Program-made: the position numbers and the translations under genes
Notes under the pieces: generated by a model
Seen by the model: the letters and a program-made list of their open reading frames with translations, nothing else
What the model was told of the DNA's origin: nothing
The model's database searches: none
Assembly: GCA_910587325.1 (NCBI GenBank)
Contig: CAJUKB010000004.1
Location: forward strand, 16,988 to 80,987
Direction: 5' to 3'
DNA: 64,000 nucleotides
Origin: an uncultured Bacilli bacterium
GTDB lineage: Bacteria; Bacillota_I; Bacilli_A; RF39; UBA660
Part shown: positions 6,036-47,244 of the stretch, in pieces
How the letters are laid out: each line of letters begins with the position of its first letter
How positions within the stretch are numbered: position 1 is the stretch's first letter

Positions 6036-6076
6036 AAAAAAGTATGTTCTTTTTATTTAGAAATCATACTTTTTTT
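6036..6076. terminator. Hairpin (11-bp stem AAAAAAGTATG/CATACTTTTTT) between convergent genes, putative bidirectional terminator
   Basis: Inverted repeat followed by a T-run, located between the stop of 5658-6017 (+) and the stop of 6075-7358 (-). Confidence 0.45.
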
Positions 6077-7358
6077 ATATATTCTTTTTCTTACTTACGA
6101 ATAAATAACCAATTCCTACAAGAGAGACAACAGCAAGTCCACTATGTAAGAAAACATTTAAGGTACCCGTTTGAGCATTATTGGTATTTTCTACTAAGAC
6201 ATATTCACTGCAATGTTCTAAAGCAAATTCTACAAAACCATTTTTTACTTCTAAGTTTTTAGCTGCTTCTTCTAACTTACCATTTTCATTATAATAATAT
6301 AATGTTAATTTTTTGCCGTTTTTAAATTGTTCTTCCACATTTACTTTTACTTTTGTTCCAGTTGGTAAAATTCCATGATAAGCAAATTCTAATACTACTG
6401 ATTTGCGATTTTTAGAAATTAAATTTTCAATTTTCTCTTTGTTAGTACTTTTACCAACATTTATATTTAAGTTTATGTTTAAATCGGTATTTTCTATTTT
6501 GCTACCATCAAAAGTCCAAGTATATAAAAGCTTATTTTCATCATTGTATGTAGAAATATTGGCTATATAACCACTTTGTTTAAACGCTTCTAAAGTATCT
6601 TTTGTTACTCCTGTTTCTCCTATGTATAATTCTACTTCATTGTTCTCAAAAACCGGTTTTACTTCTTCTAGCATTTCTTCAAGTGTTTTTTTATCCCAAT
6701 CCTTTATTGTAATAGTTTTAAAAATTTCAACTTCTTTAAAATTGATATTACGAAAACTCATAGAGAAGCCTTCTTCGTCTCCTCCGCCACCATAAGCTTG
6801 CCAATCAGGATATTTTTGAGGAATGACTTTATCAATTAATTCGTTAAGAACATCATGACCCTTTTCAATGCTTTCTACTTTGTTTTCTTTTGTATTATAA
6901 ATGATTGTTTCATAGTCATAATTCTTATCTTGTAAAAAGATTTCTACTAAAATGTCTGTAGTTGTAAAACTTTCATTTTGCATTTCATAAAATTGAGCAA
7001 TTGTCATACCAGAGGTTAACGCTGTATTTTCATCTACAATTGTTCCTTCTTCTTTATTTGCACTACATGTTGTGGAAGTAACAATTTTTAAACCATCTGT
7101 TTCACATTTGCCATCTGAACAACTTCCACCAAATTGTTCATTATTTACATTTCTAATTAGAAGATTAATTCTCTCTGTTTGATTATTTAAAGTCATATTT
7201 TTAAGTAATTTAAATTTAACTCCTAATTTATTATCTTCTTTCTTTACACATAAATTGTTTAAATCAATAAAGTTAGAAGTCTGTTCTTCTGCTTGGACAT
7301 TTGCAGAAATACTTAAAGTAAATAATGCAAGTAATATTCCTATTATTTTCTTTTTCAT
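6075..7358 (-). CDS. Sortase-anchored surface protein with C-terminal NAQTG sorting signal (paralog of 8415-9926)
   Basis: 427 aa. Signal peptide MKKKIIGILLALFTLSISANVQA. C-terminus is NAQTGTLNV followed by a hydrophobic stretch and a KKKNI tail. The C-terminal region is homologous to that of 8415-9926. Confidence 0.7.
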   Translation of the reverse strand: MKKKIIGILLALFTLSISANVQAEEQTSNFIDLNNLCVKKEDNKLGVKFKLLKNMTLNNQTERINLLIRNVNNEQFGGSCSDGKCETDGLKIVTSTTCSANKEEGTIVDENTALTSGMTIAQFYEMQNESFTTTDILVEIFLQDKNYDYETIIYNTKENKVESIEKGHDVLNELIDKVIPQKYPDWQAYGGGGDEEGFSMSFRNINFKEVEIFKTITIKDWDKKTLEEMLEEVKPVFENNEVELYIGETGVTKDTLEAFKQSGYIANISTYNDENKLLYTWTFDGSKIENTDLNINLNINVGKSTNKEKIENLISKNRKSVVLEFAYHGILPTGTKVKVNVEEQFKNGKKLTLYYYNENGKLEEAAKNLEVKNGFVEFALEHCSEYVLVENTNNAQTGTLNVFLHSGLAVVSLVGIGYLFVSKKKNI

Positions 7359-7386
7359 TTTTTCTTTCCTTTCCTATGATAAGCTC

Positions 7387-7415
7387 ATTATACCCCCACC
7401 CGAAGGCTTTGTCAA
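7387..7415 (-). promoter_or_regulatory. Consensus promoter TTGACA-N17-TATAAT with an interrupted G-tract (GGGGGTGGG) in the spacer
   Basis: Minus strand: -35 TTGACA at 7410-7415, -10 TATAAT at 7387-7392, RBS AGGAAAGGAAAG before the ATG at 7358. Paralogous to the G10 promoter at 9970-10000. Confidence 0.5.
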
Positions 7416-7433
7416 GGTTTTTCGAGTATAAAA

Positions 7434-8309
7434 TTAATCTATTCGTTTGGCATGAATTACCCGTCTTTTGGTCGTTCCTCTTGCACCAGCGCAAGTAGAA
7501 AGCGTAAGGATTTTATCATTCGTATTCACAGTTACATCTCTAAAGCCAAAACTTCTATTTTTTATGGTCGTTATAAATTCTTGAAAGGCATTTTTATTTT
7601 CAAAAGAAGTTGTAATATAGTATTCTTCCATTTCAATTGTATAATAACTAAAGATTTGGTATTTATGTAACGTATGTTCCAAATCAAATAAATAAATCAT
7701 ATCGGCATTTTCTTCTTCAAAGTAATTTTTTTTAAAGATATCACTTAAAGAACCAAACATTGTATTATTAGGAGTGTGATGACCAAATAAAACCACATTG
7801 TCATCTTCTAAAGAAGTATTTCGATAATCCATAAAGATACTTCCAATTGAATTTTCTTTTTTCTTAAAAGAATGATTTAGATAGTAAGTATTATCACTTG
7901 CTTGGACGATGGGATTATTAACGTATTTATGGTTTAATACTAACCATCCGACAATATCATTATTCGTTTGTTTTAATTTAGAAAAATCAATTTTCATTTC
8001 TTCCACGTTTTCTTTTTCCTCAATTCCTTCATAAACTTCTGGTGGTTCGATAAATTCATCTAAAAGTTCTTCGATTTCATTTTGATTTTCTTTTAACTCT
8101 TTTTTAAACGTAATTAATTGATACATAGAAAAAAGGAAAACACTAATAAAAAACAAAAGTAAAAGCAAACGAATTATTTTTTTATATTTCAATTTTAATT
8201 TTCTTTTTGATTTTTTTCCTTTCTTTTTTGATTTTATTTTTTGCTTATTTTTTGAAGTTTTTAAATTAGCATGAGCAATATCATTGTTTTTCTTTTTGTT
8301 TTTATTCAT
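7434..8309 (-). CDS. srtB: Class B sortase
   Basis: 291 aa. Lys-rich N-terminus plus TM. Motifs DIVGWL, LFGHH and catalytic LTLSTC, typical of SrtB-type sortases. Flanked by two proteins carrying an N-A-Q-T-G signal. Confidence 0.75.
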   Translation of the reverse strand: MNKNKKKNNDIAHANLKTSKNKQKIKSKKKGKKSKRKLKLKYKKIIRLLLLLFFISVFLFSMYQLITFKKELKENQNEIEELLDEFIEPPEVYEGIEEKENVEEMKIDFSKLKQTNNDIVGWLVLNHKYVNNPIVQASDNTYYLNHSFKKKENSIGSIFMDYRNTSLEDDNVVLFGHHTPNNTMFGSLSDIFKKNYFEEENADMIYLFDLEHTLHKYQIFSYYTIEMEEYYITTSFENKNAFQEFITTIKNRSFGFRDVTVNTNDKILTLSTCAGARGTTKRRVIHAKRID

Positions 8310-8336
8310 GTATTATCCTTCCATTCTTTATAAACC

Positions 8337-8366
8337 ATCTTACGATTAAAGCAAAAAGATTGTCAA
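8337..8366 (-). promoter_or_regulatory. Putative sortase promoter (TTGACA-18-TAAGAT)
   Basis: Minus strand: -35 TTGACA at 8361-8366, -10 TAAGAT at 8337-8342. An AT-rich hairpin GTTTTAAAA/TTTTAAAAC lies just upstream and may be a terminator for the preceding gene. Confidence 0.35.
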
Positions 8367-8414
8367 TAAAAAAGTTTTAAAACCAAATATTTCAATTTTA
8401 AAACTCTTTTTGTT

Positions 8415-9926
8415 TTATTGTTCTTTTTTCTTACTTATAATTAAGTACCCTATTCCTAACAAAGAAACAACAGCAAGTCCACTATACAAGACAACATTTA
8501 AAGTACCCGTCTGCGCATTGTTATTCTTTTTATGGTATCCATCACTTGGAACCAAAACATAGGTTGAGAAATGAGTAAATGTTAATTTTACATTGCCATC
8601 GGTTGCTTTTAAATTTTCTGCTACAACTTCCATTTGGTTTGTTTCAGGATTAAGGTATAATAGGGTTAAAGTTTTATTTTGTAGATAGTCCTTTACTTTT
8701 TCATTTACTTCTTTTTCTTGGACTGTCCAGCAAGCATTATATTTGTCTGGCTCTTTCTTATAATCGTATTGACTACATTGATATTTCTCATCTAATTTTT
8801 CCCAATATAAATTTCTAATATATTGTTCAATATTCACATTTAATTCATAATTCGTTGGTAAATTACCATGGTAGGTAAAATCAATATACAAAGCGTCATT
8901 TAAATCCATTAAATTGGCAATTTTGTCTTTGTTAATGCTTGTTTTCATTGAAATTTGATGTTCATAAGTAAAGCCTTTTTCCACCGTATTTTTTATATCT
9001 TTACCATTTAAATAGTAAGTCGAAGTTCCTACACTCGTGTCTTGAATAAACAAAACGGTTAAGTCTTTTCCTTTTAAAGCGTTAATTACTTCTGATATAT
9101 CTTCTTTAGAACTTCGAACTGAAAAATTATATTTTCCATAGCCATAAATACAGTCATGTGGAGAGTCTGGCATCACTTCTTGATACTTATCCAAATGGTT
9201 CAATATTTGAGTTAAACCTGCCGCACTTGAACCCATTTCACCGAAATCTCTTGCAGATATTGTCCAGTCAATTTTTATATCTTGTTTTCCAGTAGCACTT
9301 ACTGTTATACTAGATTTGCCTAAATCTTTTGCTTTGGTTACAACTTCTACTCCTGTAGGTTCACTGCTATATCCATAAGCTTCCCACCAAGTTTTCGGTT
9401 CACTTTTATAGTTACTAAACCCATATTCATTTGTATATTCCCACCAAGTTGGTTTTGAGGTGTAAGTAGATTTGCAATATTCACTATCCTTTGAGAAGTT
9501 ACCGTTTTCATCTTGACAATATTCATAATTTTTTAAGAACTCTTCAAAAGTGGCCTTGTTAAAATCTTCAACGTATCTTTCCCAATTTTGTTTTTCATTG
9601 GCATAATCATAAGGTTTTACTTCTACATCTAAAATGTTTGTGTTACTACTAACTGCAGAAACATTAGACACATTCTCAAAAAGAATATTTTCATTGTAAG
9701 GTTTGTTGTGAAAAGGCTTGTGAGGGTCCCAACTTCCTCGTCCTCCTTCATCATTATGCGCAATGCTATATTCCATTTGCATGTTTTCCCATTTTGTAGC
9801 ACCATAAGTTCTTGAAAGCGCTCTATCTTTAAAATACTCTTCCCAGTATCCATCCGCATAAACATTTGCACTTCCTAAAAATAAAAGTGTTGCAAATATC
9901 CCCAAGTAAGTAATTATTTTTTTCAT
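8415..9926 (-). CDS. Sortase-anchored surface protein with NAQTG sorting signal
   Basis: 503 aa. Signal peptide MKKIITYLGIFATLLFLGSANVYA. C-terminus NNAQTGTLNVVLYSGLAVVSLLGIGYLIISKKKEQ. Confidence 0.7.
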   Translation of the reverse strand: MKKIITYLGIFATLLFLGSANVYADGYWEEYFKDRALSRTYGATKWENMQMEYSIAHNDEGGRGSWDPHKPFHNKPYNENILFENVSNVSAVSSNTNILDVEVKPYDYANEKQNWERYVEDFNKATFEEFLKNYEYCQDENGNFSKDSEYCKSTYTSKPTWWEYTNEYGFSNYKSEPKTWWEAYGYSSEPTGVEVVTKAKDLGKSSITVSATGKQDIKIDWTISARDFGEMGSSAAGLTQILNHLDKYQEVMPDSPHDCIYGYGKYNFSVRSSKEDISEVINALKGKDLTVLFIQDTSVGTSTYYLNGKDIKNTVEKGFTYEHQISMKTSINKDKIANLMDLNDALYIDFTYHGNLPTNYELNVNIEQYIRNLYWEKLDEKYQCSQYDYKKEPDKYNACWTVQEKEVNEKVKDYLQNKTLTLLYLNPETNQMEVVAENLKATDGNVKLTFTHFSTYVLVPSDGYHKKNNNAQTGTLNVVLYSGLAVVSLLGIGYLIISKKKEQ

Positions 9927-9969
9927 AATTTTTCTTTCCCTTCCTTAGAATATCTCTATTCTTAAGGCT

Positions 9970-10000
9970 ATTATACCCCCCCCCCGAAAACGTTTGTCAA
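9970..10000 (-). promoter_or_regulatory. Consensus promoter TTGACA-N19-TATAAT with a G10 homopolymer in the spacer (candidate phase-variable promoter)
   Basis: Minus strand: TTGACA at 9995-10000, G10 at 9976-9985 within a 19-nt spacer, TATAAT at 9970-9975, RBS AAGGAAGGG before the ATG at 9926. Confidence 0.55.
9976..9985. repeat. C10/G10 homopolymeric tract
   Basis: Ten consecutive C on the plus strand in DNA of about 25-28 % GC. Confidence 0.9.
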
Positions 10001-10019
10001 TACCCAAACTGTTTTTATT

Positions 10020-10979
10020 CTAATTTTCTCTTTTTGTTCTTTCCTTATCCATTTCTTTAATAATATACACAGGTCTTTTCTTTGCTTCTAAATATGTTTT
10101 AGAAAGATATTCTCCAATGATTCCTAAACAAAACAATTGAATGCCACTAACCAAAAATAAAATGCAAATCATAGAAGGCCAACCACTGGTTGGGTCTCCA
10201 AATAAAATGGTTTTTAAAACAATCACTAAAATCATTATAAAAGAAATGACACAAAATAGAATACCTATAAACGCTGAAATTGTTAAAGGCATTGTTGAAA
10301 ACGAAACTATTCCCTCAATGGCATATTTAAAAAGACTAAAAAAAGACCAACTTGTTTCTCCAGCAATTCTTTCTTTGTTTTCATATTCGAGCCATTTCGT
10401 ATTAAAGCCTACAAATCCAAATAATCCTTTAGAAAAACGATTGTATTCTTTTAAACTTAAAATGGCATTTCTAACATTCTTTCGCATTAAACGATAATCT
10501 CTTGCTCCATCAACAACTTCAATGTTGCTAATTTTGTTTATCAATTTATAAAACATTCTGGCAAAAAAACTACGAATTTTTGGTTCTCCCATTCTGGTAA
10601 CTCTTCTAGTAGCAACGCAATCTACATCTTTTTCACTTTTTAAAATGGCAAACATTTCAAGGAGAAGTTCAGGAGGGTCTTGTAAGTCAGCATCCATTAA
10701 AGCAACATAATCTCCTTTGGCATATGTAAGACCTGCTAACATAGCCGCTTCTTTACCAAAATTTCTTGATAAAGAAAGATAGTGAATACTTGAATTACGT
10801 TTACATAAGTCTTTCATTATTTTTAAGGTATTGTCTTTGGAACCATCATTGACAAGAATAAGTTCAACGTCTGTTTTTTTGAGTTCTTTTTTGATTTTTA
10901 AGATTTCATGATAAAAGAGTGGCAATGCCTCTTCTTCGTTATAACAAGCAACTACAATACTTATGGTTTCCTTTTTCAT
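10020..10979 (-). CDS. GT2 polyprenyl-phosphate glycosyltransferase (GtrB/CsbB/ArnC-like)
   Basis: 319 aa. SIVVACYNEE, DGSKDNT and DADLQD motifs, with two C-terminal TM helices typical of GtrB-like enzymes. Confidence 0.8.
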   Translation of the reverse strand: MKKETISIVVACYNEEEALPLFYHEILKIKKELKKTDVELILVNDGSKDNTLKIMKDLCKRNSSIHYLSLSRNFGKEAAMLAGLTYAKGDYVALMDADLQDPPELLLEMFAILKSEKDVDCVATRRVTRMGEPKIRSFFARMFYKLINKISNIEVVDGARDYRLMRKNVRNAILSLKEYNRFSKGLFGFVGFNTKWLEYENKERIAGETSWSFFSLFKYAIEGIVSFSTMPLTISAFIGILFCVISFIMILVIVLKTILFGDPTSGWPSMICILFLVSGIQLFCLGIIGEYLSKTYLEAKKRPVYIIKEMDKERTKREN

Positions 10980-12634
10980 TTTGTTTTCTCCTTTTTAATG
11001 ATTAAATAGATTGCAAATAAACCTACAGTGAATAAACTTATTTTATTTCCTACTCTACCTAGTGTAGTATTTTCATAAGTTACTTCGATGATTGCTTCTT
11101 GATTGGCTTCCATTTCGATAAAGCCATACTGGTTTTCTTTATAGTTGAGAAAAGTACTTTCACCGTTATAACCCATCATTTTTATGGTATATCCCAAATA
11201 ATATAATCTAGGTAGTTCTAGCTTTGCATAGTTTGTATTGGTAATTTTAAATCTTAAATTAGGAGTACTGTCTTCTATAATGCTTATATCGGCGTTTCCA
11301 TCGACGACTAAAATTTCTGTACTTCGATTGTGAAAGTAATCGATATGGTTTTTTGCATTCATCGGCAGATACTCTTCTTGGTACCCCATACCAACCTGAC
11401 TTAAATCGTAATAGCTCAAATCTTCTTTATGATACGTTTGCATGAGTATCGGAAGAATGGCAAAAAGAAAACAAGAAAAAATACAAAGTGCGAGCACTTT
11501 TTTTGATTTTAATTCGTTTAGAGCATAGTAAGACAATATGCTTAATCCAAAACATGTAAGTACTCCTAAGCGATAAGGAAATTGAATCATCAGTAAAAAG
11601 TTTGGCATTAAAAACCACGGGAATAAATGGGAAGAAAACCATATTCCTAGACATGTACAAATAACGCCCAAACAAAATAAAAAATCATTCTGAAGTTTTT
11701 CTTTAAATTTGTGTCTCTTCTTTAATTCATAAAGCAAATAAATGACTAGACCAAGAGCTACCCAATTTAGCATGTGAAAACCTATTTTTTTGCCACCAAG
11801 CAAGAATTGAAATAAGAACAAAGCATTGCCATACACACCAAAACGATTAGACATTTCGCCCTTTGTAAAAGCAACGTAATTTCCATTTAACAGATGAGTA
11901 AATAGTGGAATTAGAAACGGAAGGCTGATTAAAATGACTAAAAAGGTTGCGCATAATAAACGAAGAATAGTTTTTTTATTCCAAACTTTTTTAAAATGAA
12001 AAATAAGAAATATGCTTAAGAAAAGAGTTACGTAAATACTCATTACTAAGTGGGAGTTCAGTAGTCCAACGTATCCTAAGACAAAATAAAAATAAAATTT
12101 TTTAGACTGATTGTGGAACAAATAATAAATACCTAAAAAAATGAGAGGTAAAAATACAAAAACAAAAGATTCCGCTAATGCATCACGATATAAATAATCG
12201 TAAATTTTATAAGGTGCCGTTATATAAAATAGTGTAGCAATAAAGGATAAGTTCTTATGTTTTGTAATGGTTTTCATAAAAGTATACATCGTAATACCCG
12301 ATAAAAAGTTCAGTAAAAAATCGGTTATTTTGATGGATGTAAAAATAGTTCCAGGGGTATATTTATAAATAAGTGCTGTTATAAAATGAGGAAGATTGGG
12401 ATAGAAAATATTGGTTCCATAGCCAAAGTTATTGGCAATGAACGGAAGAATTTTTAAGTTTGCTATATTGGACCATTGTAAATTTTTAATAAAAGAGAGA
12501 ACATTAGCTACATGAAAACCCGTATCATGGCCATAAAAATAGTTATTACTTAATAGTGGAAAAAGTAGAAAGATTGAAATTAAAAAAATAAAAAAATAAT
12601 ATTTATCTATTTTAATTGGTATTCTTTTGTGCAT
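10976..12634 (-). CDS. Polytopic membrane protein, putative GT-C type glycosyltransferase (GtrC/YfhO-like partner of GtrB)
   Basis: 552 aa with more than 10 predicted TM segments. Start overlaps the stop of the GtrB-like gene. RBS AAAGGAGAAA. Confidence 0.45.
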   Translation of the reverse strand: MHKRIPIKIDKYYFFIFLISIFLLFPLLSNNYFYGHDTGFHVANVLSFIKNLQWSNIANLKILPFIANNFGYGTNIFYPNLPHFITALIYKYTPGTIFTSIKITDFLLNFLSGITMYTFMKTITKHKNLSFIATLFYITAPYKIYDYLYRDALAESFVFVFLPLIFLGIYYLFHNQSKKFYFYFVLGYVGLLNSHLVMSIYVTLFLSIFLIFHFKKVWNKKTILRLLCATFLVILISLPFLIPLFTHLLNGNYVAFTKGEMSNRFGVYGNALFLFQFLLGGKKIGFHMLNWVALGLVIYLLYELKKRHKFKEKLQNDFLFCLGVICTCLGIWFSSHLFPWFLMPNFLLMIQFPYRLGVLTCFGLSILSYYALNELKSKKVLALCIFSCFLFAILPILMQTYHKEDLSYYDLSQVGMGYQEEYLPMNAKNHIDYFHNRSTEILVVDGNADISIIEDSTPNLRFKITNTNYAKLELPRLYYLGYTIKMMGYNGESTFLNYKENQYGFIEMEANQEAIIEVTYENTTLGRVGNKISLFTVGLFAIYLIIKKEKTK

Positions 12635-12655
12635 ATAATTTTCTCCTTTTTAATA

Positions 12656-12686
12656 ATTATAACCCCCCCCCCAATGAAAAAGACAA
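12656..12686 (-). promoter_or_regulatory. Promoter-like TTGTCT-N19-TATAAT with a G10 tract in the spacer
   Basis: Minus strand: TTGTCT at 12681-12686, G10 at 12663-12672, TATAAT at 12656-12661, RBS AAAGGAG before the ATG at 12634. Confidence 0.5.
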
Positions 12687-12805
12687 ATACAATCGAGTTC
12701 AATTTAGGGCTATGAATTCAAAAGAAAAATAACCTTTTTTAAATAAGAGTTATTTTTTCTAAATTATATGCTGTAAGATTTCTTTTAAGTATCATACTAT
12801 AAAAC

Positions 12806-14422
12806 TTATTTTTCATAAGAAAGTAAAGGAATTAAAAAATCAAAAGGAAGCATTAATACAAATATATAAACATACCTTAAACTAAAAGCAATGGGCACTC
12901 CTATCATAATGGGAATCCAAATAAATAATCCAGGTATATATAAAATTAAATATCTATATTTTTTAGTTAAAAACGTAATGGTTATGCTTAAGAAGAAGAG
13001 CCAAATAAAGAATGCAGATGAAATAATTGGAAATGAATCTATTGTTTTTCGTAAAGAAAAATGAAACAATTCCTGTAGCAAATCTCTTTGCTCTACTAAA
13101 TCCGTATGTGTAGGCCATGTATAGGTTTGGATATAGGCGACACTGCTATTTTTTTTAATATCCCAATAACCAAGTGTTTGTAAAAGATAAGCCTCTATAT
13201 AGTTGTTAAAATTTTTGGGTAACAATCTAAACCAAATGTTAAAAAACTCTATTTTGTGAGAATTCAAAAAATCTTTATTAAAATCGTTGTTCCATTTTGT
13301 TGTATCAAAATTAAGGGGTTTAGCAGCAGTTTTCAAAACCTCTATTGGAATAATTTGATTTAGAAATTCTTTATCTTTTTCTTCTAAAGAAGCATCTTTT
13401 TTAACAGAATAAGAAATTTGTTGGAAAGGAATAGAAACACTTTCAATGAAATTATCCCCTTTTAAATGCAAATAGGAATAAATAGGTCCTTGTATCGCAA
13501 CGACAATTAAAATTAAACTCAAAATCGATAGTAAGAATTGTTTATTTATACTTTTTTTACATCTATAGTGACAAATAATAAGTACAAGAGTTGTTCCTAA
13601 AACTACAAAAAAACCATTATTCCTTAAGAAACAAACAAATAAAGATAATATGCAATAGAAAATTATGTCTTTTTTATTTTTGAAATCTGCTCGTGAACTC
13701 GTAAAAATATCAAAAAGAAAAGCAATATAAATGATTAAAACAAAATTAAATGGAGTATCTTTCCATATAGAAATAACATATAAAGGTATAAGCGGAAATA
13801 GTGCAAAGAAAGCAAGTACTAAAAAAGTCACCCTTTTTGGCAAGTTTTTCTTATGAATCACATATATAACATAACTTAATGCTAAGGCACAACCGATATA
13901 TTGAAAGAACCCAAAAAGAAGAATTCCCCCTGTTAAACCACTGCCTAAAATAGAACTTCCTAATGAAGTAAAGATTTTTAATGTAATGGTATACAAAATT
14001 GGATTATTATTGGATAAAAGACCAATTCCATTTACTTTAAAATTGGAAAGTTGTACGATAGAAGCATAAGTATCCGAATAAATTCCTCCTGGAAAATAGG
14101 ATAAAAAATAAGGAAGCCACGTAAGTAGTAATACACCAAAAGCAATCCAAAACAGATGAGGTATTTTTTTCGTATTTGCTTTTTCCATTTTTTTATTTAT
14201 ATGTTCATATATCTTTTGAAAAAAAGTAATAAAAATATAAGTAATGAAAAAGAAAATAATTTCTTTTCCAAAATCCTTAACGTGAAAGGAAGCAAAGGAA
14301 ACATCTGAAAAAACATTTATTTCTTCATTGCATATTAATTTTGAATCAAGCACTAACATGAAAGAAAAGACAAAAGAAAAAATGCTTTTTATAAAAATTG
14401 GTTTTTTCCATAATTTTTTCAA
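12806..14422 (-). CDS. Polytopic membrane protein, putative GT-C family glycosyltransferase
   Basis: 538 aa, multiple TM helices. The start may be an internal Met (MEKANTKK). Confidence 0.4.
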   Translation of the reverse strand: MKKLWKKPIFIKSIFSFVFSFMLVLDSKLICNEEINVFSDVSFASFHVKDFGKEIIFFFITYIFITFFQKIYEHINKKMEKANTKKIPHLFWIAFGVLLLTWLPYFLSYFPGGIYSDTYASIVQLSNFKVNGIGLLSNNNPILYTITLKIFTSLGSSILGSGLTGGILLFGFFQYIGCALALSYVIYVIHKKNLPKRVTFLVLAFFALFPLIPLYVISIWKDTPFNFVLIIYIAFLFDIFTSSRADFKNKKDIIFYCILSLFVCFLRNNGFFVVLGTTLVLIICHYRCKKSINKQFLLSILSLILIVVAIQGPIYSYLHLKGDNFIESVSIPFQQISYSVKKDASLEEKDKEFLNQIIPIEVLKTAAKPLNFDTTKWNNDFNKDFLNSHKIEFFNIWFRLLPKNFNNYIEAYLLQTLGYWDIKKNSSVAYIQTYTWPTHTDLVEQRDLLQELFHFSLRKTIDSFPIISSAFFIWLFFLSITITFLTKKYRYLILYIPGLFIWIPIMIGVPIAFSLRYVYIFVLMLPFDFLIPLLSYEK

Positions 14423-14441: not shown

Positions 14442-15986
14442 TTAATATAAAAATGTTGTTATCATTTCGAGCATAACTATATAATTCAAAACTATAGTTA
14501 TATAGGCAAGAATATATTTATTGATTTTTATAGGATTTTTCACTTTAAAAAATAGTAAAGCACAAATTATTGGGAAAAAGTATCTACCCTGAATGCCTAT
14601 AATAGTTCTTGCTCCTTCATAAGTACATAAATATAAAGCAGTACAAATGAGCACAAATATGCTACCTAAAATTCCTACTATGAAAATCGTTTTTTTCCAA
14701 ACATTATCTCTATTTTTCTCTTCTGAAAGAAAAGCAAATAAATTAACCATAATAAATCCAAAATTTACAATAGGAAAAGGCCTTACTTGCCAATGACATA
14801 GAAATTCTCCAGCGAAAATATTTTCTAAATAATTATAACCATTTTGAGCAATTGTATTTAATACTACCATAAGATAGCGAATAGGCTGTTGCATAATCCA
14901 ATTATTTGGAGCTTCAGTATTACTAGCCATAGCAGCTTCAGATGTGGCAGTCCATTTTAATAGTTCTTGCCAACCTAAATTCATAGAAATTCCTATAGCT
15001 ATATATATAATCTTTACTATTATTTCTTGCTTTTTACTTTTAAAACATTCATGTGGTAATAGAAGAATTAGAAAGACAAATGGCAAATACACTACTTTGG
15101 CTAAAGATACACAAATTGTTAGTAAGAATAAAAGGAAATAGTCTTGCCATTTGAAACTTTTTTTCTCTTTTATTTTACTTAAAATATAGCTTATAAACAG
15201 GAAGGAATAAGCTATCGTTGTTCCATCTGCTGAAAAAGAAGCACTATAAGATAAAAAGGTAGGAGATAGCATTAAAATAAGAGCAAAAAACTTTCCATTT
15301 GGAAGCAATTTAATTCCAACAGATACCAAAGATACACAAAATAGTAAACTTAAAAAACGACCAATTATGCCACAAAAATATGGATTTAAATGAAATAATT
15401 TTCCAAGCAATATTCCTAAAACATGAGGAATATAGTTTACAATCGAATAATTTGCTGCACTGATTTTTAAATTTCCCTTTTCTCCTTGGTTTAGTTGAAT
15501 TTTAGATATCTTTAACATATCTTCGTATTTTTTATATTCGGCTTGCTTTTCATTATTATAAATACTATCAATAACACTTTTATCAAAGCTATTCTGTCGA
15601 CTATTCTCATAATAGGGAGTGGTAAAGTAGCCTTCACTTAATTCATATGCTCTTAAATAATGCGCAGGTTCATCGCTTTGTGTAAAAAGAGGCATTATAA
15701 ACAAATAACAAATTCCTAGTAGCATAGCAATAATGAAATATTGCTTATGTAATTTTTTCACTTTTGTTGTATCTATAAAAGAAGTGGCAATTAAAGTAAA
15801 AACAAGTGTAATTAACCCTAAAATGATATATCCGTTTAAATACTTTGTGTCTAGCGCATCTGCATATAAATCGGCTTGCAAATTTTTATAATAAAAAAGA
15901 AAAGCAGTCAATAAAATAATTGCTATAGCTACTAATCTAATTACTTTTCCTTTTTTTTCATGATTTAAAATTGTTTTTAGCTTCAA
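14442..15986 (-). CDS. Polytopic membrane protein (DUF2142-like), putative glycan-modifying GT-C
   Basis: 514 aa, many TM helices. The SDEPAHYLRAYE motif resembles the DUF2142 family. Confidence 0.4.
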   Translation of the reverse strand: MKLKTILNHEKKGKVIRLVAIAIILLTAFLFYYKNLQADLYADALDTKYLNGYIILGLITLVFTLIATSFIDTTKVKKLHKQYFIIAMLLGICYLFIMPLFTQSDEPAHYLRAYELSEGYFTTPYYENSRQNSFDKSVIDSIYNNEKQAEYKKYEDMLKISKIQLNQGEKGNLKISAANYSIVNYIPHVLGILLGKLFHLNPYFCGIIGRFLSLLFCVSLVSVGIKLLPNGKFFALILMLSPTFLSYSASFSADGTTIAYSFLFISYILSKIKEKKSFKWQDYFLLFLLTICVSLAKVVYLPFVFLILLLPHECFKSKKQEIIVKIIYIAIGISMNLGWQELLKWTATSEAAMASNTEAPNNWIMQQPIRYLMVVLNTIAQNGYNYLENIFAGEFLCHWQVRPFPIVNFGFIMVNLFAFLSEEKNRDNVWKKTIFIVGILGSIFVLICTALYLCTYEGARTIIGIQGRYFFPIICALLFFKVKNPIKINKYILAYITIVLNYIVMLEMITTFLY

Positions 15987-15999
15987 TTTTAACTACTCC

Positions 16000-17193
16000 T
16001 TACTCTTCCTCATATACTTCATAACATTTGACATAAAATTTCATTATTATTTTCACAAGAAAATTTGGCCAAAATTTACGAAACATAATCGTATCTTCAA
16101 TTTGTCTTGTACTATTTTTAATCCAAGAGGCTGTGGTTGCTTCTTCATGTATGCGAAATGAAATTAATTTCATAGGAATATATTTTACTTTTCCCTTTTT
16201 AGAATAAATTTTATGAAAAGTATCCCAATCAAGCGCAAACTTTAATTCACTCGTAAATATAGGCTCTCCAAGTAACTTTTTATTATACGTTACAGAAGGA
16301 CAATTTATGGTATTCCCAAAAGCAAGAGTTAATTTACGAATCCACCTTATATTTGCAAATCCAGGAACACGTAATGGAGATTTAATCAGTTTTTTAATAA
16401 TTAAATTCTTATCTGCAATGTTTTTTCCATCTTTCAGAAAATAATTTTCTGTTGAAATCATTAATTCTTTGCCAGTGTAATTATTTAATATATTTTCTAA
16501 ATAATAGGGATCATAAACATCATCTTGATGAGCAACAGTTACAAGTTCAGTATGAGACATTTCTACTCCATAATTCCAATCCTCTTGAATATCACTTTCT
16601 CCTTTACGATAATATACATCTAGTTTATGTTTCTTTGCTAAATTATCAATATGTTTATTCTTTGTAGAAGAAACTATAATAATATTAGATTTTAAACTTT
16701 GTGTTTTTAAAGATTTTATACATTCTTCTAAATAAGGCGATTCTTTATAGGCACAAATGGCAAAGGTATGATACTTTTTTGGATGTTTCAAATACTTATT
16801 CTCTTTCCCACTAAATACCCAAATTCTACTAAACAAAAAGTTATAAGGAACAGTAACGCAAAGAGTAAGAATAGGAGCCAACATTTCTGAAAATCCTAGA
16901 ACATCTACTAATAAATACATACATCCTAAATTGATAAAATAACTACTTCCATACACAACATAATATTTCATAATAGAACGATTATCATAAACATTTTTCT
17001 TAAATACCCATCCATTGTTTAAAAGAAAACCAAGAATAGAACTTAGGAAAAAAGCAATGGTAGTTGCAATTAAATAATTGATATTTAAAAACAAAAAACT
17101 ATAATAAAATATCCAAGAACTAAAGGTATTGATACACCCTACTATGCCAAATTTAACAAATTGTTTTACTAATTGTTCTACTTTTGTTTTCAT
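16000..17193 (-). CDS. GtrA-like flippase domain fused to a GT2 glycosyltransferase
   Basis: The N-terminal ~120 aa have GtrA-family 4-TM architecture (KFGIVGCINT...NNGWVF). The C-terminal GT2 domain contains TFAICAYKESPYLEECIKSLKTQS ... HQDD. Confidence 0.55.
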   Translation of the reverse strand: MKTKVEQLVKQFVKFGIVGCINTFSSWIFYYSFLFLNINYLIATTIAFFLSSILGFLLNNGWVFKKNVYDNRSIMKYYVVYGSSYFINLGCMYLLVDVLGFSEMLAPILTLCVTVPYNFLFSRIWVFSGKENKYLKHPKKYHTFAICAYKESPYLEECIKSLKTQSLKSNIIIVSSTKNKHIDNLAKKHKLDVYYRKGESDIQEDWNYGVEMSHTELVTVAHQDDVYDPYYLENILNNYTGKELMISTENYFLKDGKNIADKNLIIKKLIKSPLRVPGFANIRWIRKLTLAFGNTINCPSVTYNKKLLGEPIFTSELKFALDWDTFHKIYSKKGKVKYIPMKLISFRIHEEATTASWIKNSTRQIEDTIMFRKFWPNFLVKIIMKFYVKCYEVYEEE

Positions 17194-18782
17194 TTTCTAA
17201 CTTCCTCATATATATCAACCCAATTAAATTCTACATCTTGTGGTATATTAAAATATTCCAACATCCAATAATTTATAGAGGGCTCTTCATAGGCTCTTGA
17301 TACTCCAAAAGAAGTATCTTTGCTTTTGTATAAAGTAATTACTTTTTCGGTTGTTCCATTATGATTTTTTAAAATGTCATAGTTTAATCTCTCAATAGCA
17401 TAATTAGCTAGATAACCATTATAAACAATACTAAAATTATAAGCACTTTTAAGAGCAAAGGGACAGATGGTGAAAACAATCGCTAAGACAAAATACAATT
17501 TACTATCTTTTAATAACTCATTAATAAATATTGCTATTAGGGCAAAAATGAAGAAGATAAATGGTAAAGCCGTTCTTCCTCCTACCACAGGAGAAACCAC
17601 TAAGCAAAATATAGAGCCACAACCACTAATGGCAATAGGAATAATTTCCATTTTCTTTTTTTGGTAGCTATATATAATCATCCATATTCCTATATATAAA
17701 ATCCAAAGTATTCCATACACAACTCCAATGATTTTAAAATGCTTTTGTAGTAAGACACAAAGAACACTTAGGATTAAAAAAAGAATATTCGATAAATAAA
17801 TGGTTCTATTTTTTATAGTAAGATCCTGACGATATTTTATTAAACAAACTAAAAATACTAGCGTTAATATCATCATAAAAATTGTCATTTCCGAACGAAA
17901 TATTACCAATAGTAGAGAAGGTAAATTTTTCATTACTTTTCCGATAAGACTTAAGCTAGCAAATTCAACATTCGTATCCATTCGAGCAAAATTTCCCGGT
18001 GCTAACAAAAGCAAAGCTAAACTAATGATACAAACCAAAACATTGGGAATATTTAATAAATTAAATTTTTTGAAATTCTTTCCTTGTTTAAAGATTATAA
18101 ATAACGTTAAAAAAGCGAACATCGCAACACCAATTTGTTCTTGAGAAAATGTTGCAAAGAAATTTAATACTAGTAGTACTAGCAGATAAAGATAATAATT
18201 TACTTTTTCTTTGTTTTCTATTTTTTCTGTTAATTTCATATATAAATAAATAAAAATAAACATAGGAAGTAATGGCCATATATACAAAATGGAAGCTGAA
18301 GCCCAATAAATTCCATGTCTTAAAAATGTCATATGAATTAATCCATACAAAATAAATAAAACAATAGGAATTAATAAATGCTTCTGCTTTGTAATTTGTT
18401 CTACTATTTTATATATAAAATAAAATATAAAAGTAATCACAACGCTTTGAATAGCAAAATAAATACCTGCGCCAAATTTTAACAAAGGAATTAAAAATAC
18501 GGATGCCCATAGTATTCTTCCTCCCCAAGTCATATAAATCATCTTACACCATTCCCATAATTGGGTGAAATTATAGTTAGTCCCTATAATATCCTCTGAT
18601 GATTGTCCATAGCTTAAAGAAGCATTTCCAAAGTCATCAAAGTACATGGCTAGCAAATGGTGCATAGCAAATAAAATAACAAAAATGACAAAAAACACAA
18701 GAAAATAATGTAAGTTATCGTTAATTTTTTGTTTTTTACTTTGTAAAAAATTTTCTAACTTTTCAAAGCTATTTCTTATCAT
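17190..18782 (-). CDS. Polytopic membrane protein, putative GT-C family
   Basis: 530 aa, more than 10 TM helices. Translationally coupled to the upstream GtrB-like gene. Confidence 0.4.
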   Translation of the reverse strand: MIRNSFEKLENFLQSKKQKINDNLHYFLVFFVIFVILFAMHHLLAMYFDDFGNASLSYGQSSEDIIGTNYNFTQLWEWCKMIYMTWGGRILWASVFLIPLLKFGAGIYFAIQSVVITFIFYFIYKIVEQITKQKHLLIPIVLFILYGLIHMTFLRHGIYWASASILYIWPLLPMFIFIYLYMKLTEKIENKEKVNYYLYLLVLLVLNFFATFSQEQIGVAMFAFLTLFIIFKQGKNFKKFNLLNIPNVLVCIISLALLLLAPGNFARMDTNVEFASLSLIGKVMKNLPSLLLVIFRSEMTIFMMILTLVFLVCLIKYRQDLTIKNRTIYLSNILFLILSVLCVLLQKHFKIIGVVYGILWILYIGIWMIIYSYQKKKMEIIPIAISGCGSIFCLVVSPVVGGRTALPFIFFIFALIAIFINELLKDSKLYFVLAIVFTICPFALKSAYNFSIVYNGYLANYAIERLNYDILKNHNGTTEKVITLYKSKDTSFGVSRAYEEPSINYWMLEYFNIPQDVEFNWVDIYEEVRK

Positions 18783-19737
18783 TTATTAAAACCTCCTCAA
18801 TCGTATATCTTGGTCTTTGTTTTGTTTCACTATAAATTTTGCCAATATATTCTCCAATAATTCCAATACAAAAAATTTGAAACCCACCAAAGAAACTAAC
18901 TAAAGTAACAATGGTAGTCCATCCTTCTACGTTTCCTGTTATAAAATGACCAATTACTACATAAAGTAGAAATATAAAACTAATAAAAGATATAAATAGA
19001 CCAAACAATGTAATAATTCTTAAAGGTTTTACACTAAAGGATAAAATTCCTTCTATGGCAAAATTCAACATCTTTTTTAAAGGATATTTACTTTCTCCCG
19101 CAAATCTTTCTTGTCTTTCGTAATACACAGTAGAAGTTTTAAATCCAATTAAAGGGATAATTCCTCTTAAAAATAAGTTTACTTCTTTATAATTTGCTAG
19201 TTCTTCTAATGCTCTTTTACTCATAAGTCGATAATCAGCATGGTTATAAACAACATCTACTCCTAAAAACTTCATAAATTTATAAAACATTTGGGCTGTG
19301 TGTTTTTTAAAAAAACTATCTTTCTTACGGTTATTTCTAACACCATATACAATGGCAGAACCTTCTAGATATTCATTCACCATTTGATCCATAACCTCTA
19401 TGTCATCTTGTAAATCGGCGTCCATACTAATCACAATGTCAGCGTATTCTTTGGCTGTCATAAGTCCTGCTAAAAGAGCATTTTGGTGTCCCCTATTTTT
19501 TGATAAATTCACACCTGTGACTAAGTTATTTTCTTGGTTGAATTTTGTAATTAATTCCCAAGTGTTATCCTTTGAGCCATCATTTACATACATGATTTTG
19601 CTTTTTTTATCAATGCGTTTATCTTTAATCATTTGGGTTAGTTTTTCTGTTAATCGTTTGGTTGTTTCTTTTAGTACTTCACTTTCGTTGTAGCAAGGTA
19701 CTACAACATATAATATATTACTTTTTTTAGTTGCCAT
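18769..19737 (-). CDS. GT2 polyprenyl-phosphate glycosyltransferase (second GtrB/CsbB-like copy)
   Basis: 322 aa. VVVPCYNESE, DGSKDNT and DADLQD motifs, with C-terminal TM helices. Confidence 0.8.
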   Translation of the reverse strand: MATKKSNILYVVVPCYNESEVLKETTKRLTEKLTQMIKDKRIDKKSKIMYVNDGSKDNTWELITKFNQENNLVTGVNLSKNRGHQNALLAGLMTAKEYADIVISMDADLQDDIEVMDQMVNEYLEGSAIVYGVRNNRKKDSFFKKHTAQMFYKFMKFLGVDVVYNHADYRLMSKRALEELANYKEVNLFLRGIIPLIGFKTSTVYYERQERFAGESKYPLKKMLNFAIEGILSFSVKPLRIITLFGLFISFISFIFLLYVVIGHFITGNVEGWTTIVTLVSFFGGFQIFCIGIIGEYIGKIYSETKQRPRYTIEEVLINDKK

Positions 19738-42404: not shown

Positions 42405-43328
42405 TTAATAATTCCATTTTATTTTATTAAAGCAATTTATACCCCCCCCCCGTTTGAATTTGTTATAGAGATTACGAATTTTACTAATGTATGTCCAACT
42501 TTTGCTATTTAATATTTGTTTTAAAGAATCATGAGATTTAGTCAATTCATTATTTAATTTTTTTATTATTGTTTCTTGTTTTTGATTTTGCATTTTCATA
42601 TTATTGAAATCTTTTTCTAGTGTCGTTATTTTTTCATTTAGTTCCTTTATGATAACTTCTTTGCTTTTATTATGTTCGTGGATAAAAAAGTAATCGTTGT
42701 TATACCATAAAACATTTATGAATTGTACTTTTTTGTATTTGTGTTTCCAAAGGGAGTACATAAAGGAAAGTTGATCTCTTCTACTGTATCGTTTTACCAT
42801 ATTCCACCAACAATTTTGTACTTTTTTAATTTTGCTATTATTAGTTTTAAATGCAAAAAAATTATTAGCAGTAAGTCCATAATGTTCGGGAAAATTTTCT
42901 TTTTTTAAAAATGTCATTTCTTCCTCAATAATCTTTTTATCGTCTTTTTTCCAATCAATACATACTATTGCCTCTTCATAAATACAATCTCTATCGGAAT
43001 GGATAAGAGAAAAAAAGTCGTAATTTTTAAGGTCACATTCTTTTTTAATAAACTCACTAACTGGTTTTCTTAATTCTATATTAGCGTCCATATAAATGGC
43101 CAAATCATAATTTTTAAAGATTTCTTCACAACCAAGAATTTTGATTTTTCTTTCTAATCTAATGAAATCTAAGAGTTCTGGATTATCTAAGGACATAATT
43201 TTCCAAGTTTTGCTTTTAATGTTTGGGTTATTTGTAAAACAATAATAATCTATTTCTTTATCTATATACTTTATTTCTTTTAAGGTATCATAATCTCCAG
43301 TTATTGCTGTATATACCATAGTTTTCAT
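42405..43328 (-). CDS. Putative glycosyltransferase-like protein (DUF616/TOD1-MUCI70-like) with a coiled-coil C-terminus
   Basis: 307 aa. N-terminal AITGDYD motif. The C-terminal Gly-Gly-Gly is encoded by the G10 tract. Confidence 0.4.
   Translation of the reverse strand: MKTMVYTAITGDYDTLKEIKYIDKEIDYYCFTNNPNIKSKTWKIMSLDNPELLDFIRLERKIKILGCEEIFKNYDLAIYMDANIELRKPVSEFIKKECDLKNYDFFSLIHSDRDCIYEEAIVCIDWKKDDKKIIEEEMTFLKKENFPEHYGLTANNFFAFKTNNSKIKKVQNCWWNMVKRYSRRDQLSFMYSLWKHKYKKVQFINVLWYNNDYFFIHEHNKSKEVIIKELNEKITTLEKDFNNMKMQNQKQETIIKKLNNELTKSHDSLKQILNSKSWTYISKIRNLYNKFKRGGGINCFNKIKWNY
42442..42451. repeat. C10/G10 homopolymeric tract inside the 3' end of CDS 42405-43328, followed on the minus strand by TATAAA
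   Basis: Encodes RGGGI 16 codons before the stop. On the minus strand G10-TATAAA lies 42-60 nt upstream of the ATG of 41239-42393. Confidence 0.9.
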
Positions 43329-44987: not shown

Positions 44988-46517
44988 TTATTCTTTTTTG
45001 TTGTTTTTAGTAGGTTCTTCTAAATACCGTTTAGCGTCTTTAATAAAACTAATCACAATCATAATTATCACTATTCCTATTGGAAAAGCCGCGACTATGC
45101 TCACAGATTGTAAATTATTCATAGAACTTTGTGAAAATACCAAAGCGATTGGTAATAAAATTAATAAGATGCACCATATTAATTGCATCATTCTATGCGG
45201 TTTTTCATCTTTAGCAAGTTTGTGATAACTATAGCATGATGCCGTATAAGCAATGGAATCGAAAGAAGTTGCGTAAAATGCAATCATTGTAATTAATAAT
45301 AATATTAAAATAAACGGAAAACATGGAATGGTTTTAATTATAGAAATAATAATATTATAAATATCTCCACCATTTTGATACATTGCCACAAAATCAAATT
45401 GCCCACTCATTTGAAGGCCTAAAGAATGATTTCCTAATATTATAAAACTAATAATTGTAGACCCTACACCAAAGATATATCCCCCAATAATCGTTTGTTT
45501 AACAGTTCTTCCTTTTGATATATTACCAATAAAAAAGGGAGCAGCAACACACCAAACCATCCAATAAGCCCAATAATAAATTGTCCAATTTTGTGGAAAA
45601 CTTGTTTCTCTTAAAGGATCTGTTGTCGTCGATAATCCTATAAAATTTTCTATCATTCGTCCTAATGAAGAGAAACCATTTTCAATAATAAATCGCCCTT
45701 GTCCTCCAAAAAATAAAACAAATAATAAAATACCAAAAAATAAATAAATACAAATTTTTGCAAGTAAACTCATTCCTTTAAATCCATGTAAAAGCGTATA
45801 CGTATATACAATACAAGTTATTAAAAGAATAATTATGGTAATTACTGTCCTGCTTATGGTTATATGAAATACTTCTCCAATAATTGCAGCCATTAAAGGA
45901 GTAGCAACGCTAAATGTTGTAGCAGTTCCAGCAAGTAATGCAAATACTGCTAGCAAATCTACTATTCTTCCTGGTAATTTATCTGTAAATTTTCCAAGTA
46001 AAGGCCTACACGCTTCTGAATATTTTTGTTTTTCTCTTTTTCTTACATGTAACATAAAGCCAAAAGCAATTGCAAGAACTAAATAAAAACTCCACGGAAT
46101 AAAACTCCAATGAAATATTGGAAATACGCTTGCCCAATCTTCCATATTTCCTAAATGCGCAATATGACTTTCTCCTGCATACATAATCCATTCCGAAAAT
46201 GAATAGAATAAGATGTCTGCCGCAAGTCCACACGTAAACATCATAGCCCCCCAAGTAAAGAAGGAATATTTTGGTTTTTCATTTTTTTTGCCTAATACAA
46301 TATTTCCATACTTCGAAAACGCAATAATTAAGGACAAAATAAATATCCCTAAACCCATTATCAAATAATATACACCAAAAGTATCCCCAAAAATAAATCT
46401 AATTTTACTTAAAACTAGATTAGATTCTGTAGGTAGAAAAATAAATAGGACGCATAGAGCAATAATTAAAACAAGTGGCATTAAAGTGATTAGCCAATCA
46501 ATTTTCTTTGTTTTCAT
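44988..46517 (-). CDS. BCCT-family (betaine/carnitine/choline) transporter, probable choline importer
   Basis: BCCT signature WTIYYWAYWMVWCVAAPFFIGNISKGRT, about 12 TM helices. Start taken at the internal Met MKTKKIDWL. The ORF track starts at 46565. Confidence 0.7.
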   Translation of the reverse strand: MKTKKIDWLITLMPLVLIIALCVLFIFLPTESNLVLSKIRFIFGDTFGVYYLIMGLGIFILSLIIAFSKYGNIVLGKKNEKPKYSFFTWGAMMFTCGLAADILFYSFSEWIMYAGESHIAHLGNMEDWASVFPIFHWSFIPWSFYLVLAIAFGFMLHVRKREKQKYSEACRPLLGKFTDKLPGRIVDLLAVFALLAGTATTFSVATPLMAAIIGEVFHITISRTVITIIILLITCIVYTYTLLHGFKGMSLLAKICIYLFFGILLFVLFFGGQGRFIIENGFSSLGRMIENFIGLSTTTDPLRETSFPQNWTIYYWAYWMVWCVAAPFFIGNISKGRTVKQTIIGGYIFGVGSTIISFIILGNHSLGLQMSGQFDFVAMYQNGGDIYNIIISIIKTIPCFPFILILLLITMIAFYATSFDSIAYTASCYSYHKLAKDEKPHRMMQLIWCILLILLPIALVFSQSSMNNLQSVSIVAAFPIGIVIIMIVISFIKDAKRYLEEPTKNNKKE

Positions 46518-47244
46518 TTTTTTCGCCTGCTTTCTTAAAATTAGCGTAACTGTTATCAATTGCAATTAATTCTTGATAATTATCTATTTCTACTATATCT
46601 TCCTTTTCTATTTCATAAACGTGTAAATCAAATTCTTCAGGATAACAAAACATTGCAATATTATCCCAATAAATGGTAGTATTGTTTTTATTTATGAACT
46701 CTTCTTCCACATATTTTTTTAATTTTTTTCCATCTTCTTTTGTCCATCTTGAAATGCTCCACAAACGGTATCCATCTTTTCCACCCTCAATACTACAATT
46801 TGTAATTTTTCCACAGTTATCAGTTTGCAAAAACCACTCATTTGTATATTCTTTGCACCACGAACAACTATATCCAGATTTTTCAAAGTATGGATTTAAT
46901 ATGCTTGGATTTTTAATTATTAAGTCGGCGTCTGTAATAATAATTTCTTCTAAAAATTCTCTAGCAACATACAAAGAAGAAATATTGTTGGTTTCTTCAT
47001 AATATTTATTTTCAATTAATTTTATATTCGGATAGTCTTCTAACAAAATATTAAATTTATCTTTTAGGTATCCAACAACAATATATATTTCTTGTATTCC
47101 ATTTTGGTATAAACCCTTTATAATAGTATCAATCATTCTTACGCCATTTACTCTTATTAATGGTTTTGGCGTTTCAATTGTAACAGGGTTTAATCTGCTT
47201 CCCTTGCCCGCTGCTAAAATAAGGGCTCTTTTTATTTTATTCAT
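46498..47244 (-). CDS. licC: CTP:phosphocholine cytidylyltransferase (LicC-like nucleotidyltransferase)
   Basis: 248 aa. ALILAAGKGSRL nucleotidyltransferase motif, in the same operon as a choline kinase and LicD. Confidence 0.65.
   Translation of the reverse strand: MNKIKRALILAAGKGSRLNPVTIETPKPLIRVNGVRMIDTIIKGLYQNGIQEIYIVVGYLKDKFNILLEDYPNIKLIENKYYEETNNISSLYVAREFLEEIIITDADLIIKNPSILNPYFEKSGYSCSWCKEYTNEWFLQTDNCGKITNCSIEGGKDGYRLWSISRWTKEDGKKLKKYVEEEFINKNNTTIYWDNIAMFCYPEEFDLHVYEIEKEDIVEIDNYQELIAIDNSYANFKKAGEKNENKEN

Follow-up and report, generated by a model that had tools for sequence, protein, structure and literature searches.

Does the run of ten G residues in the promoter spacer of a two-gene membrane glycosylation operon make transcription of that operon phase variable? 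The question was raised by a sequence-only reading of a 64,000-nt stretch of an uncultured Bacilli bacterium (hereafter the window), which had described a third G10 tract, set in a minus-strand promoter with TTGTCT and TATAAT 19 nt apart and followed by a ribosome-binding site and an ATG at 12634. We found the sequence to be exactly so, and the window to contain three G10 tracts, each adjoining a -10 hexamer (TATAAT or TATAAA). The promoter, which we call T2, and the elements on either side of it are as follows.

12719..12758, minus strand: AT-rich hairpin (AAAAAAUAAC...GGUUAUUUUU) followed by a U-run, terminator-like, 5' of the T2 promoter, recognised by folding and by sister-lineage comparison
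12681..12686, minus strand: -35-like hexamer TTGTCT of the poly-G promoter T2, matching TTGACA at 4/6 positions
12663..12672, minus strand: G10 homopolymer T2 within the promoter spacer, hypermutable, with G9, G10 or G11 in other samples
12656..12661, minus strand: -10 hexamer TATAAT of T2, matching at 6/6 positions
12643..12648, minus strand: ribosome-binding site AAGGAG of the GT-C gene, 8 nt 5' of the ATG at 12634 (12634-12632)
10976..12634, minus strand: GT-C-fold polytopic membrane glycosyltransferase, 552 aa, placed by fold matches
10020..10979, minus strand: GtrB/CsbB-type GT2, 319 aa, placed by matches to PF00535 and 5EKP

The T2 spacer reads ttttcatt, G10 and t on the minus strand, 19 nt in total. 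With a tract of at least about 8 nt between the -35 and -10 elements and a ribosome-binding site and gene on its 3' side, it has the structure that defines a promoter-spacer homopolymer. No second -35 candidate lies 17 or 18 nt from TATAAT (GTCTTT and TGTCTT match at 1/6 positions each), and the 172-nt gap upstream of the operon, 12635-12806, contains no further good promoter besides T2. An Rfam scan of the whole window gave no match that reached the gathering score, which leaves no riboswitch or leader to account for the region.

The hairpin at 12719-12758 probably insulates the operon against transcription from upstream, and in the sister lineages L110 and L116 its stem is kept while its loop varies. 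Its fold of -6.4 kcal/mol (z -1.2) is not significant against shuffled sequences, and a consensus terminator scan found nothing close to T2. Because the hairpin is weak, any switch at T2 could be blunted by transcripts running through from the glycosylation genes upstream. This weakness is one of the points in favor of a rival reading that treats the tract as a mutational hot spot without a regulatory role and its length as neutral, with the operon mRNA coming mainly from such read-through or from another promoter. We regard that as unlikely, and the 172-nt gap without another good promoter is the first of several observations against it.

The others begin with the rarity and placement of the tracts. 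The G10 runs lie at 9976-9985 (T1), 12663-12672 (T2), and 42442-42451 (T3), with the G residues on the minus strand in every case, in a window of 27% GC. A search for G8 returned nine overlapping matches, all of them within the three G10 tracts, where shuffled sequences gave an expectation of 0.09. On the plus strand, C runs numbered 41 of length four, eight of length five, one of length six, none of lengths seven to nine, and three of length ten, where about 0.0004 would be expected under an iid model. The G10 tracts are thus not due to chance, and at 27% GC, with G/C runs of 7-9 absent, a G10 would be unlikely to persist neutrally. No additional tracts were found in the sequence beyond the window ends. 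There is, however, a fourth and interrupted tract within the window, T4, and the three sister promoters are these.

9970..10000, minus strand: T1, made up of TTGACA, aacgttttc, G10, and TATAAT (19 nt), driving a 503-aa secreted protein with a NAQTG sorting signal
7387..7415, minus strand: T4, made up of TTGACA, aagccttc, GGGTGGGGG, and TATAAT (17 nt), with an interrupted tract, driving a 427-aa NAQTG surface protein
42436..42451, minus strand: T3, G10 followed by TATAAA, located 42 nt 5' of the start codon (ATG at 42393) of a DUF1972/GT1 (RgpA-like) gene

All four tracts fall within 36 kb and precede surface-related genes. That each sits exactly between -35 and -10 elements, two of them with perfect hexamers, and that surface-related genes lie behind every one, both argue against a neutral hot spot. 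T3 has a second location, in the last approximately 15 codons of the preceding 307-aa TOD1/MUCI70-like glycosyltransferase ORF (42405-43328), and its length changes therefore rewrite the C terminus of that protein: the alleles G9, G10, and G11 give called ORFs of 296, 307, and 300 aa, respectively. The same changes may also alter the downstream promoter, whose -35 element is poor.

T1 begins about 20 nt past the stop of the GT2 gene. As this short gap contains no clear terminator before the T1 -35 element, transcripts started at T2 may run on into the 503-aa gene, which itself closes with a strong hairpin and U-run. T4 serves the 427-aa gene, which has a terminator of its own. The two proteins (6075-9926) carry signal peptides, are paralogous in their C-terminal halves, and end in NAQTG, a hydrophobic helix, and KKK; neither had a match in Pfam or NCBIfam. 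The sortase encoded between them is of class B (TIGR03064, 189 bits), its gene has its own TTGACA-18-TAAGAT promoter, and the NAQTG motif resembles the sortase B signals of the Clostridioides type.

To follow the tracts across samples, we gathered contigs of the same species by exact-protein look-ups, obtaining about 25 independent samples that are 98.5-99.9% identical to the window. Lengths were called from the consensus of Illumina-based Logan and metagenome-assembled genome (MAG) assemblies, short-read data in which poly-G is error-prone. Among 14 samples, T2 was G9 in one (SRR33137223), G10 in ten, and G11 in three (SRR27190649 and SRR31203367, with a run of at least 11 in SRR31203350). 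T1 was G12 in SRR35979018 and G10 in other samples, and T4, interrupted in the window, was uninterrupted in other strains, at G9, G10, or G11. In a 181-kb alignment of the approximately 25 samples, the frameshift-type indels were all within the four G tracts, T1-T4; the remaining differences were accounted for by runs of N, paired shifts of the alignment, and one codon indel. Across these aligned intervals, all eight A8/T8 runs kept a constant length.

The sequence-only reading had named a lack of length polymorphism as the outcome that would speak against a switch. We found G9, G10, and G11 on identical flanks, including identical SNP haplotypes. Contigs L001 and L005 agree at 53/53 SNP sites and differ at T2 (10/11), T1 (12/10), and T4 (11/10), and among four contigs that form one SNP haplotype, T2 is 10 in three (L002, L004, and L006) and 11 in the fourth (L096). 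Taken together, the T2 alleles, the identical haplotypes, and the distribution of indels show that the tracts change length far more often than their flanks mutate, and T2 is hypermutable. Within the same interval, 25 of the 53 SNP sites of 7400-14000 fall in 9243-9797, the N-terminal half of the 503-aa gene, which also contains the codon indel at 9750-9760; the cluster suggests diversifying selection or recombination.

A sequencing or assembly artefact at a homopolymer whose true length is fixed might produce a superficially similar picture, given that the calls come from Illumina-based Logan and MAG assemblies, that contigs often stop at the tracts, and that the differences amount to only +/-1 to 2 nt. 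We consider it highly improbable: the consensus varies by sample on identical flanks, and independently at the four tracts of a single 61.8-kb contig, which read 10, 12, 11, and 10; the called ORF lengths at T3 (307, 300, and 296 aa) follow the tract; no 8-nt A/T run varies; and T4 has a genuine substitution allele. By hand count from the contig tables of these short-read assemblies, 8/30 visible contig ends were within 31 nt of a tract, against approximately 0.4 expected. Such ends could reflect mixed lengths branching the k=31 assembly graph or poor sequencing of poly-G.

Given that the length varies, we consider it likely that slipped-strand changes at the tract alter the spacing between the -35 and -10 elements and would thereby make transcription of the operon phase variable. 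In this mechanism, the G10 would be a hypermutable simple-sequence repeat in the spacer of a sigma-A-type promoter ahead of two genes, and slipped-strand mispairing at replication would add or remove G residues. Each residue would change the -35/-10 distance by 1 bp and turn the hexamers by about 34 degrees, and as spacing and rotation change, promoter strength would shift heritably yet, presumably, reversibly. Under a 17-nt rule, T2 would be ON at G8, partly ON or low at G9 (18 nt), and weak or OFF at G10-G11 (19-20 nt); the window's own state of 19 nt is predicted to be weak or OFF, not ON.

Spacer tracts of this kind have precedents. In T. pallidum, tp0126 has a poly-G between the -35 and -10 elements with an optimum of 17 nt, and tprL is active at G8, close to background at G10, and most commonly G9 in vivo; in N. 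meningitidis, the poly-G of porA lies within the -35/-10 spacer (PMC7864442). Like these, the tracts described here are G runs of approximately 8-11 nt between or beside the two hexamers of a sigma-70-type promoter, and their targets are at the surface. In the known cases, length differs both among isolates and within them and determines the level of transcription (PMC7864442), while here the variation in length is observed and its effect on transcription is predicted. The hosts differ also, being Gram-negative and spirochaete pathogens with porins or outer-membrane proteins as targets in the known systems, in contrast to a low-GC gut Bacilli with a glycosylation module here.

Further precedents come from repeats of other composition. 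In the vlp genes of Mycoplasma hyorhinis (poly-A) and the hif genes of Haemophilus influenzae (TA repeats), spacer repeats switch surface genes, several switches per genome act combinatorially, and the targets are lipoproteins or fimbriae. Mycoplasmas are phylogenetic neighbors of low-GC Bacilli/'Tenericutes' MAG lineages such as the present host.

Within the window, the 17-nt rule can be compared with T4. The allele present there (GGGTGGGGG with a perfect TTGACA-17-TATAAT) looks like a natural locked-ON variant derived from the G9 state, and we infer that an interrupted 17-nt allele with perfect hexamers supports the rule in this organism. That the interruption left exactly 17 nt speaks against a neutral hot spot. 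Among the points that stand against phase-variable transcription through spacing are that the -35 element of T2 matches at only 4/6 positions and that the 17-nt state (G8) was absent from T2 in every sampled consensus. The second of these also favors a neutral tract, as does the finding that G10 is the commonest state at all four tracts despite their differing non-G spacer parts, whether it gives a spacer of 18 or 19 nt. The shared mode could reflect a mutational equilibrium instead of selection.

The G10 mode can also be read as the mark of a length-sensitive site for regulator binding, or of a structural one (a G.C helix), at which 18-19 nt could be the active length. The poly-C of Neisseria opc, which overlaps the -35 element and is thought to work through a regulator (PMC7864442), offers a parallel. 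We consider this reading very unlikely for T2, as the tested promoters with poly-G spacers, tp0126 and porA, are optimal at 17 nt (PMC7864442) and the locked allele of T4 is at 17 nt.

A survey of metagenomes added evidence on spacing. We scanned for the pattern TTGACA-N(6-10)-G(at least 9)-TATAAT with a spacer of at most 19 nt and recovered at least 124 sites (loci L123-L242) from at least 90 distinct unrelated families, on contigs of 25-66% GC, many of them from the human gut. Among the matches listed, tract length varied in every family sampled at least three times. Counting one site per family among the matches listed, with at least nine G residues and at most 19 nt required, spacers of 15, 16, and 17 nt were found in 11 families each, 18 nt in 31, and 19 nt in 26. 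Spacers of 18-19 nt were thus about three times as common as those of 15, 16, or 17 nt among the matches listed, which is only a lead. The predominance of 18-19 nt among the matches listed would suit a binding or structural site; that the pattern itself demanded at least nine G residues and no more than 19 nt weakens the argument.

The same excess could have another cause, namely that 18-19-nt poly-G spacers are the working optimum of a distinct geometry, owing to under-twisted G.C runs of shorter rise, and that the promoters act as a rheostat centered on G10. We think this improbable. It would account both for the G10 mode at the four tracts and for the excess of 18-19 nt in at least 90 metagenome families, and if true, a widespread class of switch promoters in nature would break the 17-nt rule. 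Phase variation in gut commensals is mostly discussed through invertible promoters, and the survey suggests that poly-G spacer promoters are common and largely unannotated. The genes behind the sites were, among the matches listed, in many cases for lipoproteins or for secreted, surface, or LPXTG proteins and also included a PucR-like regulator and a DcuC transporter.

What phase-variable transcription from T2 would control depends on the two products. The ORFs at 10976-12634 and 10020-10979, which had been taken for a GT-C membrane protein and a GtrB-like GT2, are indeed 552 and 319 aa long, and both assignments held up. The 319-aa protein matches PF00535 (E 8e-35) and, in a phmmer search of the PDB, Synechocystis GtrB (5EKP, E 5e-75) over essentially its full length, residues 6-310, and ArnC (E 4e-38). 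Its best NCBIfam model, PgfS, scores 314 bits, under the 500-bit cut-off. By these similarities, it is a polyprenyl-phosphate sugar synthase of the GtrB/CsbB type, a type defined by a C-terminal membrane anchor. The stop of the GT-C gene and the start of the GT2 gene overlap by ATGA, an arrangement that couples the GT2 translationally to the GT-C gene, and the GT2 gene has its own internal ribosome-binding site.

The 552-aa protein was more difficult to place. Membership of YfhO was rejected (PF09586; 22.3 bits against the 28.5 of the Pfam gathering threshold), DUF6541 scored 21.9 bits against a cut-off of 29, NCBIfam gave no match, and no sequence relative emerged when a profile of the GT-C alignment was run against the PDB. 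To place the protein, a fold search was needed. An AlphaFold (AF2) model built from 33 homologues reached a pLDDT of 92 and a pTM of 0.91, and its Foldseek matches in the PDB (probability approximately 1.0, TM 0.4-0.5) were GT-C enzymes only, among them PglB, STT3, ArnT, EmbA/B, AftD, PMT, ALG, and DPY19. A GHDTG motif follows the first helix, near the first loop, with D37 nearly invariant and H41 invariant. One apparent split of the gene, into 403 + 137 aa in the NCBI MAG GCA_948716395.1, was due to runs of N and involved no frameshift.

On the evidence of sequence and model, the pair thus combines a GtrB-type lipid-sugar synthase with a GT-C transferase, two of the three parts of an extracytoplasmic glycosylation system of the Gtr or CsbB-YfhO type (PMC5836110, PMC8035078). 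The two-gene operon is without a GtrA-type flippase. The nearest candidate for the third component lies upstream, outside the poly-G promoter.

16000..17193, minus strand: GtrA-family domain (GtrA_DPMS_TM, E 5e-23) at the N terminus, fused to a GT2, 397 aa in total

In the proposed pathway, the GtrB-like enzyme would load a sugar on undecaprenyl phosphate at the cytoplasmic face, and the GT-C enzyme would move it onto an acceptor outside the membrane, most likely the product of the surrounding locus of about 40 kb, a wall polysaccharide or a teichoic acid. Switching would then yield subpopulations that carry one surface sugar decoration and others that lack it, which may be useful against phages and host antibody.

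The approximately 40 kb around the operon is a wall-glycan locus. It encodes three more GT-C-like proteins (DUF6020, DUF2142, and DUF6056/GT_STM0557_N), a second GtrB-like GT2, an ABC-2 exporter, the RgpA-like DUF1972 glycosyltransferase, acyltransferases, and genes for choline uptake and activation. The row 5' of the switch (14442-19737) consists of four more candidate components of lipid-linked glycosylation modules, namely a GtrB-like GT2 (322 aa), the DUF6056/GT_STM0557_N protein (530 aa), the GtrA-GT2 fusion (397 aa), and the DUF2142 protein (514 aa), and then the DUF6020 protein (538 aa). None of these five genes has a poly-G promoter, and of the modules in the row only the last has one. 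Immediately before the hairpin, 40 nt (12760-12800) match the 3' end of an ORF6N-domain gene, which in the sister lineage L116 stands ahead of the GT-C gene. In the window, this remnant is all that follows the DUF6020 gene, and it marks a past rearrangement of the junction. Elsewhere in the window, 44988-49024 encodes a BCCT transporter, a LicC-like nucleotidyltransferase, and a choline-kinase fusion protein beside the glycan genes, which suggests phosphocholine decoration of a wall polymer. Pneumococcal teichoic acids carry this decoration.

A close parallel in outcome is the bactoprenol-linked three-component pathway of the gtrABC operons of Salmonella enterica and phage P22, which gives phase-variable O-antigen glucosylation and comprises a flippase, a GtrB-type GT2, and a polytopic membrane transferase that decorates a surface glycan. 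The GT2 and the transferase have counterparts in the operon described here, and both systems appear to be subject to stochastic ON/OFF control (PMC2909390, PMC3688519). The switch in Salmonella is epigenetic, through Dam methylation of GATC and OxyR (PMC2909390). The regulatory region 12635-12806 contains no GATC in its 172 nt, and a switch of the Dam/OxyR type was rejected; the view that the mechanism differs from that of Salmonella gtr was thus borne out. Unlike gtrABC, the present system appears to have a DNA-length switch, lacks gtrA in the operon, and has a transferase that resembles YfhO/DUF6541 and not GtrC. A protein matching Pfam GT_STM0557_N (DUF6056) is encoded near the operon in the window. 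We know of no work establishing the gtr genes of Shigella as phase variable.

Among Gram-positive bacteria, the CsbB/GtcA/YfhO systems of B. subtilis and Listeria, and related multi-component systems that glycosylate teichoic acids and wall polysaccharides, are similar in having a GtrB-like GT2 and a GT-C transferase, a GtrA-family flippase encoded apart, and a wall-glycan setting (PMC5836110, PMC7389260, PMC8035078). They differ in that the YfhO match here is below threshold and in that repeat-based phase variation is not known for them. In the literature, we found nothing specific on gut Firmicutes with phase variation driven by repeats, nor on such variation in three-component glycosylation systems, and no account of a module of this kind under a repeat-driven switch in a Gram-positive bacterium or in the host lineage. 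The type of switch is known; the organism and the target are new.

Using public assemblies only, the analysis documents repeat-length variation at promoters in a low-GC lineage of uncultured Bacilli. The set comprises at least four putative switches on surface genes, one of them on a Gtr-like sugar-decoration module in a Gram-positive envelope. The alleles G9-G12 and the interrupted, apparently locked allele provide material for testing how such bacteria diversify surface glycans and sortase-anchored proteins against phages and IgA.

The switch appears to be of limited phylogenetic depth. Across 79 loci of GTDB species representatives (890 kb; GT-C proteins 31-58% identical), there was one G run of at least eight, and it lies outside any promoter spacer: a G10 in a rabbit-gut Bacilli MAG (L042, 4223-4232), just 5' of a TTGACA. 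In the sister lineages L110-L117, whose GT-C proteins are 70-73% identical, no G run of six or more was found, and compared with their GT-C/GT2 pairs, the window has about 50 extra nt that comprise the -35 element, the tract, and the -10 element. As this segment and its tract are missing in the relatives, the switch is lineage specific and recently acquired.

The sister lineages (Logan contigs, e.g., SRR29272114_18673) are otherwise close to the window: their 172-aa NlpC/P60 protein is identical, and their PFOR falls within the same 90%-identity cluster. They have no poly-G promoter and no sortase/NAQTG cassette, and a cation-efflux gene takes the place of the cassette. By this comparison, the surface cassette and its switches are variable genome content.
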